Shown here: piece by piece, positions 31,299 to 34,091 of the stretch | Position numbering within the stretch: position 1 is the stretch's first letter | How the letters are laid out: the number at the start of each line of letters is the position of its first letter | IMG/VR virus record: IMGVR_UViG_2778261450_000004 | Reading direction: 5' to 3' (one strand) | From: a virus | Lineage: Duplodnaviria > Heunggongvirae > Uroviricota > Caudoviricetes | DNA: 40,477 nt | The notes under the pieces: model-generated | The model's input: only the letters and a program-made list of their open reading frames with translations | What the model was told of the DNA's origin: nothing | Database searches by the model: none | Position numbers and translations under genes: made by a program

Positions 31299-31311
31299 AT
31301 TGTTTTCACCT

Positions 31312-31332
31312 TGTAACGCTCGCAGCGTTACA
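31312..31332. repeat. Palindrome TGTAACGCT-CGC-AGCGTTACA (copy 3)
   Basis: Perfect 9-bp arms; sits 14 bp upstream of the O-like start codon, between ydaT and the O-like gene. Confidence 0.8.
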
Positions 31333-31376
31333 TTTAACTGATACCGAACAAAACGCTCCGGCACGATTAATTTCAA

Positions 31377-31799
31377 TCAATGCACTACGACAGAATCGCC
31401 GGATGATCCGCCGCGGCTGAAATGCGCTTTCCGGTAAACGGCCTGGACTGCATCATCATGCGCATCAATTGCCGTATTCAGCGCTTCCTGAGCCGCCAGT
31501 AATGCGCGACGTTCCAGGGTGTCAAAAACGCTGAGGCGGTGTCGCAGTTCGCGCGGAAGAATTGCCAGGATTGCAGGAATCAGCTTCTGGATTTTTTCCC
31601 TTTGCGCCTCTGTTTCACCTTTTAACCAGCGGTGATAGATGTTTTGCTGATTGTTCCAGTCCTTGCCTGGCGCCAGGGCTAATTCACTCTCCCCCTGGCG
31701 CAAATATTCTTCAGTAATTGCGTTGGCAACCCACGCCTGACCTTTTTCGGCAGCCAGAGCTAACAACACTGATTCAATGTGCTCATGCCTGATTTTCAT
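31377..31799 (-). CDS. ydaT: YdaT-like protein
   Basis: 140 aa from MKIRHEHIESVLLALAAEKGQAW...; position after the Cro-like gene matches Rac ydaS-ydaT. Confidence 0.6.
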   Translation of the reverse strand: MKIRHEHIESVLLALAAEKGQAWVANAITEEYLRQGESELALAPGKDWNNQQNIYHRWLKGETEAQREKIQKLIPAILAILPRELRHRLSVFDTLERRALLAAQEALNTAIDAHDDAVQAVYRKAHFSRGGSSGDSVVVH

Positions 31800-32010
31800 G
31801 AATACCCTTACCCGCCCGCTTTGCCTTACGATATTTGTCATAGATATTTGAGTCGTACTGAAGCTCCCCGCCAGATGCCTCTTGCAGACGCATCGCGCGG
31901 CCTTCAGGAACCAGTTCCCCCCATTGAGAAACAGCAGATGGATCAACGCCAGCAGCTTTCGCCACTTTGGCTTTCGTGCCGTAATAATTAATTACGTCTG
32001 ATTTAAACAT
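31783..32010 (-). CDS. Cro/YdaS-like small HTH protein
   Basis: MFKSDVINYYGTKAKVAKAAGVDPSAVSQWG... is HTH-like; ATG at 32010 with a GGAGGTG SD; divergent from the repressor gene. The track start at 32037 is a TTG. Confidence 0.55.
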   Translation of the reverse strand: MFKSDVINYYGTKAKVAKAAGVDPSAVSQWGELVPEGRAMRLQEASGGELQYDSNIYDKYRKAKRAGKGIHENQA

Positions 32011-32020
32011 TGCACCTCCA

Positions 32021-32037
32021 ATATTGAGTTTTCTCAA
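32021..32037. promoter_or_regulatory. Operator: 16-mer ATATTGAGTTTTCTCA containing palindrome TTGAG-TTTT-CTCAA
   Basis: Exact 16-mer repeated at 32557-32572; lies between the divergent Cro-like and repressor genes; further CTCAA half-sites at 32047 and 32057. Confidence 0.55.
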
Positions 32038-32066
32038 TGTTAATCACTCAAGGAATCTCAAGTCAA
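32037..32066 (-). promoter_or_regulatory. Putative promoter for the Cro-like gene
   Basis: On the - strand: TTGACT (32061-32066), 18-bp spacer, TAACAT (32037-32042); the operator overlaps the -10/+1 region. Confidence 0.3.
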
Positions 32067-32087
32067 GGGTTATTAAGATATCTAAAT

Positions 32088-32495
32088 ATGAACGAGAAAA
32101 CTTTAGGTCAACGAATTAGAGAAAGACGCAAGCAGGTAGGCTTAAGTCAAAGTGGTTTAAGCAAAGCTGCTGGCGTTTCTGGCTCATCAATTTCATTATG
32201 GGAAAGTGACCATACAGCCCCGCGCGGGCAAAATTTGCATAGACTCGCCGAGGTATTACAATGCTCACCGACCTGGATACTGTTCGGTGATGAGGATAAA
32301 ACTCCGGATGCCCCAGTTTCACTCAATAGCACCTTAGACTTATCGGAAGATGAACTGGAGATGTTGCGACTGTATCGCGCACTTCCAAAATCCGAACAAC
32401 AAGCACAAATCAGTGAACTCAGCGCTCGAGTTGAGAATTTTAATCGCCTATTTACTGAGCTATTAGAAGCTCGCAAGCGTAACAAACATCAATAA
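32088..32495 (+). CDS. XRE-family HTH repressor (CI / RacR-like)
   Basis: MNEKTLGQRIRERRKQVGLSQSGLSKAAGVSGSSISLWESDHTAPRGQNLHRLAEVLQCSPTWILFGDED is a classic XRE HTH. No SD, so possibly leaderless; an alternative upstream ATG is at 32037. Confidence 0.7.
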   Translation: MNEKTLGQRIRERRKQVGLSQSGLSKAAGVSGSSISLWESDHTAPRGQNLHRLAEVLQCSPTWILFGDEDKTPDAPVSLNSTLDLSEDELEMLRLYRALPKSEQQAQISELSARVENFNRLFTELLEARKRNKHQ

Positions 32496-32556
32496 TCACC
32501 CCATCACAAATTTTTAAAGCCTTACATTTCAATGTATTGGCTTTATCTTGAGTCAA

Positions 32557-32606
32557 ATATTGAGTTTTCTCATCAAAAACACTTGACCAAAAACAATGAG
32601 AAAACT
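32557..32606. promoter_or_regulatory. Second operator cluster: 16-mer ATATTGAGTTTTCTCA (32557-32572) plus inverted copy TGAGAAAACT (32597-32606)
   Basis: Exact repeat of the 32021-32036 16-mer; located downstream of the repressor gene and upstream of the rightward early operon. Confidence 0.5.
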
Positions 32607-32682
32607 AAATTACATCCCATCAAAACACCGCACGGTGTTCTCAGCAAACAGTTCCGCCACCCGGCGTTAAGGGGATACGAAG

Positions 32683-32961
32683 ATGATCGCAGATGAAAAG
32701 CAGGGACTGGTGTTAAAAATAGATACCAGCCCCCTGAGACATCAGATTGAGAAGTTATACAAACTACTTGTTCCTGCGGTTTTTAACTGTCCGGATGATT
32801 TTATTGATTGTTTTATTAAAGTGTTCACTGAAATCAGAATCTTTGATTTCCGCAAAACAATCACCGCAGATAAAACGATCATTGTCAGAGCCAGAGTGCT
32901 CATCGATCTCAATGTAGCGAGATCGGCAATGAGGACAGCGAAATTTAATATCCATAATTAA
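32683..32961 (+). CDS. Hypothetical ORF at the ydaG position (uncertain; overlaps an antisense zinc-ribbon ORF)
   Basis: 92-aa ORF with an AAGGGG SD about 8 nt upstream; on the same strand as the rightward early operon. Confidence 0.3.
   Translation: MIADEKQGLVLKIDTSPLRHQIEKLYKLLVPAVFNCPDDFIDCFIKVFTEIRIFDFRKTITADKTIIVRARVLIDLNVARSAMRTAKFNIHN
32764..32955 (-). CDS. Putative zinc-ribbon protein (CPHC-x17-CGDC)
   Basis: MDIKFRCPHCRSRYIEIDEHSGSDNDRFICGDCFAEIKD...; TAAGGA SD 8-9 nt upstream of the ATG. Confidence 0.4.
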   Translation of the reverse strand: MDIKFRCPHCRSRYIEIDEHSGSDNDRFICGDCFAEIKDSDFSEHFNKTINKIIRTVKNRRNK

Positions 32962-32995
32962 TATCCTTACAGCAAATTACCATTTGTAAGGATAT
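32961..32995. repeat. 11-bp perfect inverted repeat ATATCCTTACA / TGTAAGGATAT with 13-nt loop
   Basis: Read directly; overlaps the SD of the - strand zinc-ribbon ORF and abuts the stop of the + ORF. Confidence 0.75.
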
Positions 32996-33050
32996 CACCT
33001 CACCTGATGTGGTTAAAAGCAGGTCGTAGGCTCCACGATACGGAGCAACT

Positions 33051-33248
33051 ATGAAGCCAATTCCCCCAGCGTTAAGGGAAAATGAGGTCAACATGGATAC
33101 TATCGATCTTAGCAACAACGAATCCCTGGTGTGTGGCGTGTTCCCCAACCAGGATGGAACGTTCACCGCCATGACGTATACCAAAAGCAAAACGTTTAAA
33201 ACCGAAGTTGGCGCGCGTCGCTGGTTGGAGAAGTACACAGTAAGCTAA
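33051..33248 (+). CDS. ydaF: YdaF-like small protein
   Basis: ATG at 33051 with a GGAG SD (alternative ATG at 33093); protein-like sequence at the Rac ydaF position. Confidence 0.45.
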   Translation: MKPIPPALRENEVNMDTIDLSNNESLVCGVFPNQDGTFTAMTYTKSKTFKTEVGARRWLEKYTVS

Positions 33249-33700
33249 CGATTAAAACGTCTGCTCCTACTGTTCCAGAATAACTTCATAAAGTGGGAGT
33301 ATTTTTCGGTGACGAGATAATAAGAACAGTTTGCGCCATCACTCTGATGTTGAATGATGCCCTTCCGTTCTAATTTTTTCATAACCGGGTTACGGCAAGG
33401 AGAAGTGATAATAAGATTTCCTGTTTTAAGGAAATCTTTAAATACAGCGATTTCTTTCTCAGATAAACGAAGCAATACTCGTTGCTCTGGTAGCAATGAA
33501 TAATGTTTTTGAATATGTGCTCGCAATCTTGAGAAGGAAATGGCAACCACGAAAGAAAAGGCAAAAACTATAATCTGAAAGAGCCAGGTTATTTCAGTAT
33601 AAGCATTAAATACGACAGCAAACTCTTTCGGTATCAGCCAGAGAGTGAGGCCAAAAATGATAATCGTGTACATAAGTCTTTCGATGTGGCTCTTTAGCAA
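33245..33700 (-). CDS. sieB: Superinfection exclusion protein B-like membrane protein
   Basis: Two N-terminal hydrophobic helices (IIIFGLTLWLIP..., WLFQIIVFAFSFVVAISF); opposite strand to kilR, as sieB is in Rac. Confidence 0.5.
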   Translation of the reverse strand: MLKSHIERLMYTIIIFGLTLWLIPKEFAVVFNAYTEITWLFQIIVFAFSFVVAISFSRLRAHIQKHYSLLPEQRVLLRLSEKEIAVFKDFLKTGNLIITSPCRNPVMKKLERKGIIQHQSDGANCSYYLVTEKYSHFMKLFWNSRSRRFNR

Positions 33701-34091
33701 AAAGTTTCAACAATGGAGTAAATACATCCAACATTTCAATAACTCTCGACTGTAAGGGTATTGAAATGTTAACACAAGCTCTCGCTGTAGGGGTATAGCC
33801 GAGACCACCGAAGCCCGGAGGTGGTGAAATAAAACCGGGCACAACACGAAGGCGCATTTCCGATATCCATAAAGAGTCGGTCTTGTCTGTTAAATATAAA
33901 TGGTGGGAGTGCGCCTCCGGTTGTGAATAACGACATTGCTGTGTGTAGTCTTTGGCGGCATCGGTTTTTTCTTGAAGTTCGGCTGATGTCCGCCCTTTTT
34001 AAAGTGAATTTTGTGATGCGGTGAATGCGGCTAAGCGCACGCGGAACAGTTAAAAAACTCTATATTAGTTTGGGTGGTATTTGTATCCGGT

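Follow-up and report, generated by a model that had tools for sequence, protein, structure and literature searches.

Does the repeated sequence that flanks the repressor gene of this viral DNA serve as the binding site of that repressor, and what kind of control would it then provide? The window, by which is meant the whole stretch of 40,477 nucleotides that was analysed, carries the 16-mer ATATTGAGTTTTCTCA exactly at both 32021–32036 and 32557–32572, and the repressor open reading frame lies between the two copies at 32088–32495, as an earlier note on this DNA had described. The repeat is very probably the binding site predicted for that repressor, as judged from the sequence and its relatives. 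With considerable confidence, the repeats can be read as operators belonging to a lambdoid immunity switch, one of the P22 immC or Qin dicA-dicC type with a recognition sequence of its own. Such a switch is an ordinary phage on/off device of the textbook kind, and no new mechanism is revealed.

The exact direct repeat is 17 nt long (32020–36 and 32556–72) and belongs to a wider one, 32017–36 and 32553–72, in which 19 of 20 bases are identical. The inverted 10-mer TGAGAAAACT at 32597–32606, previously described as a partial copy, is the exact reverse complement of AGTTTTCTCA and lengthens to a 15-nt arm (32596–32610) that is 93% complementary. The palindromic core TTGAG-TTTT-CTCAA occupies 32024–37 and, as had been proposed, overlaps the best minus-strand −10 hexamer, TAACAT (32042→32037). 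The 16-mer had also been taken as the functional unit, and this did not hold. The conserved unit is instead an 18-bp pseudo-palindrome, xATTGAG-N4-CTCAATx, as in P22; it reads TTGAGTTTTCTCAAT, since the ATA at 32021–23 is hypervariable among relatives.

An exact 16-mer repeat is not significant as evidence by itself, since at least one is found in 53% of random 40-kb sequences generated from a Markov-2 model; two further direct runs occur in the window besides this one. The repeat could then be a functionless relic or a chance duplicate, as many such prophages are cryptic, or it could act as a small RNA hairpin in the cro leader, TTGAGTTTTCTCAA being able to form a hairpin of 5 bp. Over the whole window the motif TTGAG-N4-CTCAA with up to 2 mismatches is not enriched (17 found, 22.8 expected). 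Its matches are clustered in a nonrandom manner, with 5 of the 17 lying within the 264 bp of the two intergenic regions (binomial p = 7e-8). For the 16-mer itself, when up to 3 mismatches are allowed, 5 matches were found where 0.61 would be expected (0 of 100 shuffles). Sequences at 26209 and, upstream of kilR, at 34050 agree with the 16-mer at 13/16 bases; they are non-palindromic and were taken as chance. Sites of the YdaT type, TTGATT-N6-AATCAA, were also considered (9 found, 5.1 expected), and none is in the control regions. A literature search with the motif string returned no match.

The 135-aa repressor, encoded on the plus strand, belongs to the DicA subfamily and has a helix-turn-helix like that of P22 C2. 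It matches NCBIfam NF007257 over residues 1–135 of 135 at 231.6 bits (cutoff 101), is 55% identical to K-12 DicA, and has the N-terminal domain of P22 C2 as its best PDB match (1adr, E = 2.7e-16; 2r1j, E = 1.3e-15). Pfam finds HTH_3 only and no peptidase domain, and alignment with C2 shows the S24 (LexA-like) autocleavage domain of C2 to be missing. On the minus strand, the gene at 31783–32010 encodes a 75-aa Cro-like protein of the DicC/P22_Cro family (Pfam PF14549, 66.5 bits, cutoff 30.2) that is 59% identical to K-12 DicC; its Shine-Dalgarno sequence, GGAGGTG, lies at 32019→32013. Downstream of it in the operon equivalent to the rightward (PR) one, a YdaT-family gene (31377–31799, minus strand; Pfam YdaT_toxin PF06254, 44.1 bits, cutoff 21) occupies the position of the CII gene, and RefSeq names it ydaT in an identical locus (L001).

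The divergent side had earlier been read as Cro/YdaS-YdaT. The YdaT family member is indeed shared, but the similarity to YdaS is 33% over 43 aa (E = 1e-5; Pfam YdaS_toxin 21.7 bits, below the cutoff of 30), and the pair is a Cro of the P22_Cro/DicC type with a repressor of the DicA subfamily. K-12 Rac has the same prophage backbone and position and a divergent repressor/Cro-like pair; as in the window, ydaT, ydaU and ydaV lie to one side, opposite ydaF, sieB, kilR and recET. An identity with K-12 racR/ydaS was nevertheless rejected. K-12 Rac matches the flanks only, comparison of the window repressor with RacR gave nothing significant (E = 2.9), and the proteins of the two modules are at most distant relatives.

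The cro-like and repressor genes are separated by 77 bp (32011–32087) with back-to-back promoters, PR on the minus strand and PRM on the plus strand; all promoters and transcription starts given here are predictions from consensus and P22 homology. PR, the promoter of the cro-ydaT operon, was returned by the promoter scan as TTGACT-18-TAACAT. Its −35 (32061–32066) corresponds to the annotated P22 PR, and the AGTCAAG there is invariant in the window, Buttiauxella, C. braakii and P22. In its −10 (32037–32042) only positions 3 and 4 vary freely, with 1, 2, 5 and 6 fixed, as relatives have TACTAT, TAGCAT, TACCAT, TAGTAT and TATCAT. OR1 (32022–32039, TATTGAGTTTTCTCAATG) contains the first copy of the 16-mer, has ATTGAG in both half-sites around a TTTT centre, and lies across both the −10 of the cro promoter and its predicted start, at about 32030. 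OR2 (32046–32063, ACTCAAGGAATCTCAAGT) is a weaker match of low variability, with half-sites TCAAG and TTGAG and the centre GAAT. Additional CTCAA half-sites had been noted at 32047 and 32057. Both are present, and the one at 32057 is part of OR2; the one at 32047 overlaps the weak left arm of OR2 and was rejected as an independent half-site, as it is not itself conserved, being replaced by TTCAA in many haplotypes of E. coli and by CGCAA in Buttiauxella.

A further site, OR3 (32071–32088, TATTAAGATATCTAAATA), was absent from the earlier note. It adjoins the repressor start codon, has the P22-like half-sites TTAAG and TTTAG, and was also recovered as a palindrome by the repeat search. The centres of OR1, OR2 and OR3 (32030.5, 32054.5 and 32079.5) are spaced by 24 and 25 bp. 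PRM is AGGAAT-17-TAAGAT, with a weak −35-like hexamer at 32051–32056 and the −10 at 32074–32079. The predicted mRNA start at about 32085 would make the repressor message nearly leaderless, without a Shine-Dalgarno sequence. A possible fourth site at 32090–32107, a direct repeat where the repressor coding region begins, is absent from Buttiauxella and was set aside as a coincidence.

On the 3′ side of the repressor gene a terminator-like hairpin lies on the plus strand at 32515–32545 (AAAGCC...GGCTTT followed by a T-rich tail); its RNA fold has −11.3 kcal/mol with z = −2.96, and it is among the most conserved non-coding blocks. It is followed by OLa (32558–32575, TATTGAGTTTTCTCATCA; half-sites TTGAG and ATGAG), which contains the second copy of the 16-mer and stops 7 bp short of the PL −35, and by OLb (32594–32611, CAATGAGAAAACTAAATT; half-sites ATGAG and TTTAG), which contains the inverted partial copy and covers the PL spacer and −10. 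The OL centres are at 32566.5 and 32602.5. PL is TTGACC-17-TAAATT on the plus strand, its −35 (32583–32588) being the same as the P22 PL −35 and the Qin dicBp CACTTGACC, and its −10 (32606–32611) the same as that of P22 PL; transcription is predicted to start at about 32619, at the A in CCATCA. The proposed second operator cluster is present, at a promoter that reads away from the repressor gene, with two convincing sites and not three. A third candidate, the TTGAG at 32548–52, is without a partner arm, and relatives have TTGCA or TTGCG in its place.

The non-coding DNA of P22 immC can be aligned with the immunity region of the window, and the experimentally annotated OR1, OR2, OR3, OL2 and OL1 of P22 coincide with the five sites. 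For instance, OR2 matches P22 OR2, ACTAAAGGAATCTTTAGT, column for column; OLa aligns with P22 OL2, ATTTAAGTTTTCTTCAAA, and OLb stands at the position of P22 OL1. The site bound by P22 C2, ATTTAAGATATCTTAAAT, is 18 bp long and combines TTAAG half-sites with 4 uncontacted central bp (PMC5175364; PMC4267663). The sites of the window share with the P22 operators the length of 18 bp, the 5+4+5 geometry, the 4-bp A/T centre and the positions. The promoter hexamers are also the same in both, namely TTGACT for the PR −35, AGGAAT and TAAGAT for PRM, the former annotated in P22 as part of the promoter for transcription of the C2 gene in the lysogen, and TTGACC-17-TAAATT for PL. In P22 the RM transcript begins 4 nt ahead of the c2 ATG, so that both repressor messages are nearly leaderless, and the 5′ end of the P22 early-left RNA is annotated at the same A in CCATCA. 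The placement of the repressor gene between two operator clusters, the OR/OL layout suggested earlier, is thus borne out by homology and conservation as a predicted arrangement.

Differences from P22 are nevertheless clear. The half-site is TTGAG in the window and TTAAG in P22, a G in place of A at operator position 5, and the recognition helix is SGSSISLW in place of SNVAISQW; the P22 Val33, which packs against the thymine methyls of TTAA, is a Ser in the window repressor. This repressor of 135 aa ends in a short helical tail, whereas P22 C2 carries the S24 autocleavage domain. There are two clear OL sites in the window and three (OL1–3) in P22, a YdaT-family gene stands at the position of c1, and no analogue of P22 gene 24/N was identified in the window.

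Conservation speaks for the sites as well. Among 51 distinct haplotypes, the five sites have a mean column entropy of 0.047, the other non-coding columns one of 0.311 (Mann-Whitney p = 1.8e-9) and third codon positions one of 0.259. OR1 is almost invariant between variable flanks, OR3 shows zero variation, and OLb is almost invariant next to 6 hypervariable bp on its left. The Buttiauxella prophages, whose repressors are 74–75% identical, share the repressor recognition helix S(G/D)SSISLWE and the Cro helix DPSAVSQW. In these prophages OR1 and OLa retain ATTGAGTTTTCTCAAT and OLb retains TTGAGAAAACTAA, although the surrounding DNA has otherwise diverged; OLa is kept in the relatives and is perfect in one Buttiauxella prophage (L006). 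The site cores are also identical in the functional temperate phage mEp460_ev081, OR1 included. Strong purifying selection on cores amid hypervariable flanks, retention in Buttiauxella and in a functional phage, and positional homology to the P22 operators all make a relic or chance duplicate extremely improbable. The RNA hairpin shares this fate. It fails to explain all the sites, because OLa precedes its promoter and OLb has little self-complementarity, and an Rfam search of 31700–33400 was without matches.

Whether all five operators are repressor sites is a separate matter, for which Qin is instructive. Its dicA-dicC region has a repressor of the same subfamily (NF007257) and the same length of 135 aa, the same gene order, the same CACTTGACC promoter of the PL type and the same conserved leader. 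The operators occupy equivalent positions, but differ in sequence and arm spacing (TGTTAG-N6-CTAACA in Qin, TTGAG-N4-CTCAA in the window). The Qin operator sequence (Oc, TTGTTAGTCATAACTAACAA) is not present at the corresponding positions of the window, and immunity specificity therefore presumably differs from that of Qin. Oc, at the OR1 position, overlaps the dicC −10 and is bound by DicA in vivo, whereas Yun et al. found that neither of the weaker OR sites, Om and Oa, bound DicA alone (PMC3441716). By analogy, the true repressor sites may be only OR1, OLa and OLb, with OR2 and OR3 conserved for reasons of promoter, transcription start and translation start; OR would then be effectively a single-operator switch, as reported for Oc. 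OR2 and OR3 each match the consensus at only 8 of 10 positions, and OR3 overlaps the PRM −10, start site and ATG, by which its invariance can be explained. In C. braakii, moreover, OR3 is almost unchanged although OR1 and the OL sites differ. Against this, both coincide exactly in alignment with the established C2 sites OR2 and OR3 of P22, and the spacing of 24 and 25 bp agrees with that of P22 (23 and 25) and Qin (25 and 25). Occupancy of weak sites normally comes about through cooperative binding, which an in vivo assay of single sites would miss. A restriction of the repressor to three sites is thus a genuine but unlikely option, and a switch with operators at all five positions is preferred.

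Similarly, the Cro-like, DicC-type protein could be the sole or main reader of the sites, with the repressor using some other, unrecognised sequence. The Cro recognition helix DPSAVSQW is common to every locus that retains TTGAG sites, Cro proteins of the same family bind the equivalent intergenic DNA in related systems, and sequence alone does not distinguish the repressor from Cro as the reader. However, the repressor recognition helix co-varies with the sites likewise, no other conserved repeat was found at both OR and OL, and the operators are common to repressor and Cro in every characterised relative, namely P22, lambda, Qin and CP-933P. We regard exclusive or predominant reading by Cro as very improbable. 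The paaR2/ydaS/ydaT region of CP-933P in E. coli O157:H7 is a bistable switch of the CI/Cro type in a cryptic prophage (PMC8630535), and it resembles the window in that OR operators separate the divergent genes, PL/OL forms a second set, the repressor message has no leader and YdaT takes the role of CII. It differs in the family of its repressor, in a toxin-antitoxin pair within the repressor operon and in its repeats, of consensus GTTTAGTAA, with four inverted repeats at OR.

With shared operators, the proposed switch may work as follows. A dimer of the 135-aa repressor would bind the 18-bp pseudo-palindromes of consensus xATTGAG-WWWW-CTCAATx, and a dimer of the Cro-like protein probably binds the same sites. 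As in P22 C2, the helix-turn-helix would read the outer bases and leave the A/T-rich central 4 bp uncontacted. Occupancy of OR1, which lies on the PR −10 and start, would turn off cro-ydaT together with the replication genes. The weak PRM is overlapped by OR2 and OR3, which could provide autoregulation of the repressor and shut-off by Cro; the order in which the sites are occupied and the activation of PRM are presumed. OLa and OLb, 60–120 bp past the repressor stop codon and beyond the hairpin, would silence ydaF-kilR-recE-recT-ralR-xis-int. In Qin the corresponding dicBp, repressed by DicA, serves dicBF, whereas PL drives Rac-type genes (ydaF, kilR, recET, xis, int) in the window.

Since the repressor is without a RecA-cleavable domain, induction probably proceeds via an antirepressor or through spontaneous switching driven by Cro. 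A candidate for the former is the Rem-like 86-aa open reading frame at 24342–24602 on the minus strand, which has 59% identity to K-12 Qin Rem (tblastn, E = 7e-28). In Qin, repression by DicA is relieved by Rem (bioRxiv 10.1101/2023.04.14.536235). No LexA box was found near the Rem-like gene.

The module was found in 797 of 5426 complete E. coli genomes. An operator sequence, a promoter map and a likely route of induction can thereby be assigned to the immunity type of about 15% of these genomes and of mEp460_ev081. The predicted targets of silencing are kilR and recET in the window and the cell-division inhibitors dicBF in most relatives, and because the switch would silence such genes, the map yields predictions of homoimmunity among prophages and of the mutations that would derepress toxic genes. 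It also offers a clean natural counterpart to P22 for the evolution of repressor-operator specificity. One may go further, though doubtfully, and see in the module a naturally occurring variant of the P22 repressor/operator pair with switched specificity, in which position 5 changed from A to G (TTAAG to TTGAG) and the helix from N32-V33-A34...Q37 to G-S-S...L with loss of the valine that packs on the TTAA methyls, on a short DicA-type scaffold controlled by an antirepressor. OR3, on account of its P22-like half-sites (TTAAG, TTTAG) and its invariance, could be read preferentially by Cro, the helix of which remains like that of P22 (SAVSQW), or even by heterologous proteins of the P22 type; if true, this would allow cross-talk between heteroimmune prophages. 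Most relatives of the module sit in Qin-like prophages, upstream of ydfABC-dicF-dicB.

The exact 16-mer ATATTGAGTTTTCTCA, reported in the earlier note as an identical operator on both sides of the repressor gene (32088–32495, plus strand), was found at 32021–32036 and 32557–32572. The exact repeat extends to 17 nt; a 20-base alignment of 32017–32036 with 32553–32572 has 19 matches. Its inverted partial copy at 32597–32606 was likewise found, TGAGAAAACT being an exact inverted 10-mer of the repeat. An exact 16-mer repeat alone is not unusual for 40 kb; at least one occurs in 53% of Markov-2 random sequences of that scale. The motif TTGAG-N4-CTCAA, with up to two mismatches, is not enriched over the whole window (17 found, 22.8 expected). 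The non-random feature is the clustering of the matches, 5 of the 17 falling in the intergenic regions on either side of the repressor gene, which together span 264 bp (binomial 7e-8).

Reading the sites as 18-bp units, after the P22 C2 model, gives five candidate operators. Three lie between the divergent cro-like and repressor genes with a regular spacing of 24 and 25 bp: OR1 (32022–32039, TATTGAGTT/TTCTCAATG), OR2 (32046–32063, ACTCAAGGA/ATCTCAAGT) and OR3 (32071–32088, TATTAAGAT/ATCTAAATA). Downstream of the repressor gene are OLa (32558–32575, TATTGAGTT/TTCTCATCA) and OLb (32594–32611, CAATGAGAA/AACTAAATT). The ten half-sites yield the consensus xATTGAG(W)(W), in which A6 and G7 are shared by all ten, T4 by nine and G5 by six. 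CTCAA half-sites had also been claimed at 32047 and 32057; both are present, but the copy at 32047 is not conserved and was dropped as a site, as was a TTGAG at 32548, also not conserved. The convincing OL sites are two, not three. By promoter scan, the predicted cro-ydaT promoter PR (TTGACT-18-TAACAT, minus strand) overlaps OR1 with its −10, and the predicted early promoter PL (TTGACC-17-TAAATT, plus strand) has its spacer and −10 covered by OLb; a gap of 7 bp separates the end of OLa from the PL −35 downstream. In the interval from the repressor stop codon to OL is a conserved hairpin, AAAGCC..GGCTTT at 32515–32545, followed by a T-rich tail (−11.3 kcal/mol, z = −2.96), which probably terminates the repressor transcript. 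Qin and an E. whittamii locus have analogous hairpins.

The window is a Rac-like prophage with the gene order ydaV, ydaU, ydaT, cro-like (minus strand), repressor (plus strand), ydaF, sieB, kilR, recE, recT, ralR, xisR, intR. Over the 2 kb around the site clusters (31300–33300), the sequence matches E. coli E21845/O/A with 100% identity. Identity of the immunity genes with those of K-12 Rac was rejected, as K-12 DNA aligns with the flanks only, and no similarity was found between the repressor and RacR. The 135-aa repressor belongs to the DicA subfamily (NF007257, 231.6 bits against a cutoff of 101), is 55% identical to Qin DicA and has no C-terminal peptidase domain; the solved structure closest to its N-terminal HTH is the P22 C2 DNA-binding domain (E = 2.7e-16). 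The divergent 75-aa product, assigned to the YdaS side in the earlier note, is instead a P22_Cro/DicC protein that is only distantly related to YdaS. Of 5426 complete E. coli genomes, 797 carry the same module (~90% identity), in most cases within a Qin-like prophage and upstream of ydfABC-dicB; the functional temperate phages mEp460_ev081 and HannyBb carry it too. A 40-nt imperfect inverted repeat (31920–31959/32163–32202, 70% complementary) links the cro-like and repressor coding regions. Since both arms encode an HTH segment (AKAAGV..S..S.W), the probable explanation is common ancestry or a common motif, not a regulatory role.

P22 C2 binds six 18-bp operators of consensus ATTTAAGATATCTTAAAT through TTAAG half-sites, with the central four base pairs uncontacted and A/T preferred (PMC5175364; PMC4267663). 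The annotated P22 immC region can be aligned with the window as DNA. P22 OR2 ACTAAAGGAATCTTTAGT and OR3 ATTTAAGATGACTTAACT, the latter directly followed by the c2 ATG, align with OR2 and OR3 of the window; at the positions of OLa and OLb, P22 has OL2 ATTTAAGTTTTCTTCAAA and OL1 AATTAAGAAGTCTTAAAT, respectively. Common to both are the PR −35 TTGACT, the hexamers AGGAAT/TAAGAT of the repressor promoter PRM and the entire PL. By this homology, the repressor message, which has no Shine-Dalgarno sequence, should start about 3 nt before the ATG, and PL transcription near 32619. The operators differ chiefly at half-site position 5, which is A in P22 and G in the window. The recognition helix reads SNVAISQW in P22 and SGSSISLW in the window, with Ser, among other changes, in place of Val33, which in P22 lies packed against the four thymine methyls of TTAA (PMC5175364). 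We infer that the two changes are linked. Judged from sequence, the module belongs to a textbook class of phage switch, with a distinct operator specificity.

Conservation was assessed in 84 loci of the same immunity type, giving 51 distinct haplotypes of 31951–32690. Mean column entropy is 0.047 in the five 14-bp site cores, 0.311 in other non-coding columns and 0.259 at repressor third codon positions; the cores are less variable than the other non-coding columns (Mann-Whitney p = 1.8e-9, 51 haplotypes). Directly next to the cores the bases are hypervariable, among them the 6 bp to the left of OLb and the ATA that opens the 16-mer, which stands as a repeat but not as the unit of the operator. 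Variation in the PR −10 is confined to two middle positions (TAnnAT). OR3 invariance may come as much from PRM and the start codon as from protein recognition. The cores are identical in mEp460_ev081. Two Buttiauxella prophages, whose repressors are 74–75% identical and whose repressor and Cro recognition helices are the same as in the window, retain ATTGAGTTTTCTCAAT at both OR1 and OLa, and TTGAGAAAACTAA at OLb, within DNA that has otherwise diverged. The OR/OL-like layout proposed earlier is supported by immC homology and site conservation, from which we infer binding itself.

The OR1-position site of Qin, Oc TTGTTAGTCATAACTAACAA, overlaps the dicC −10 and is bound by DicA in vivo; a single base change abolishes binding, and two weaker OR sites alone are not bound (PMC3441716). 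The Qin repeats share the positions of the window's sites but differ in sequence. The CACTTGACC promoter and downstream leader are common to both, and the predicted PL leader (32619–32680), containing the hairpin CACCGCACGGTG and the sequence GTTCTCAGCAAACAGTTCCGC, is nearly identical to its counterpart in the Qin dicBp (ydfA) transcript despite the different operators. This leader, without a match in an Rfam search, could be a processing or antitermination element. In a Citrobacter braakii locus (1416–1509 and downstream), the repressor, 66% identical, carries the hybrid recognition helix SHATISLWE. The sites there combine half-sites of the types TTGAG, TTAAA and GTTAG and have an additional outer G (TTGTTGAG...), OR3 being almost unchanged from the window. 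This locus may be intermediate between the Qin-type and the window's operator type.

In the proposed switch, repressor dimers at OR1 would block PR, and dimers at OLb, helped by OLa, would block PL. Occupancy would shut off cro-ydaT and replication in one direction and ydaF-kilR-recET-xis-int in the other, and OR2/OR3, overlapping PRM, would mediate autoregulation and Cro shut-off. By consensus match, affinity would be expected to fall in the order OR1 > OLa > OLb > OR2 ≈ OR3. In Qin, dicBp is repressed by DicA and the antirepressor Rem relieves this repression (bioRxiv 10.1101/2023.04.14.536235). An 86-aa ORF adjoining hokD (24342–24602, minus strand) is 59% identical to Rem (E = 7e-28); it gave no match in Pfam and NCBIfam searches, and no LexA box was found near or upstream of it. 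Since the repressor is without a cleavage domain, induction would probably proceed via this Rem homologue.

Two inserts were also observed. At 32680–33065, about 390 bp of AT-rich DNA is inserted relative to Qin-type relatives, bounded by two copies of a leader motif, CC(A/G)GCGTTAAGGG. Its plus-strand ORF (32683–32961) is hypothetical in RefSeq with no family match; the opposite-strand ORF (32764–32955) would encode a CxxC...CxxC zinc-ribbon protein weakly matching ECs_2282_CxxC (31.4 bits, below the cutoff of 37). Between hokD and the early genes, a low-GC (0.30–0.35) three-gene insert (25452–27996, minus strand), seemingly absent from the E21845 locus by its annotation, looks like an ABC-three-component (ABC-3C) conflict or defence system. 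It encodes a 574-aa P-loop ATPase (Pfam DUF2326; PADLOC PDC-M68B, E = 8e-40), a 78-aa MC6 middle component (PF20293) and a 198-aa protein with ABC-3C C-terminal domain 10 (PF20275).
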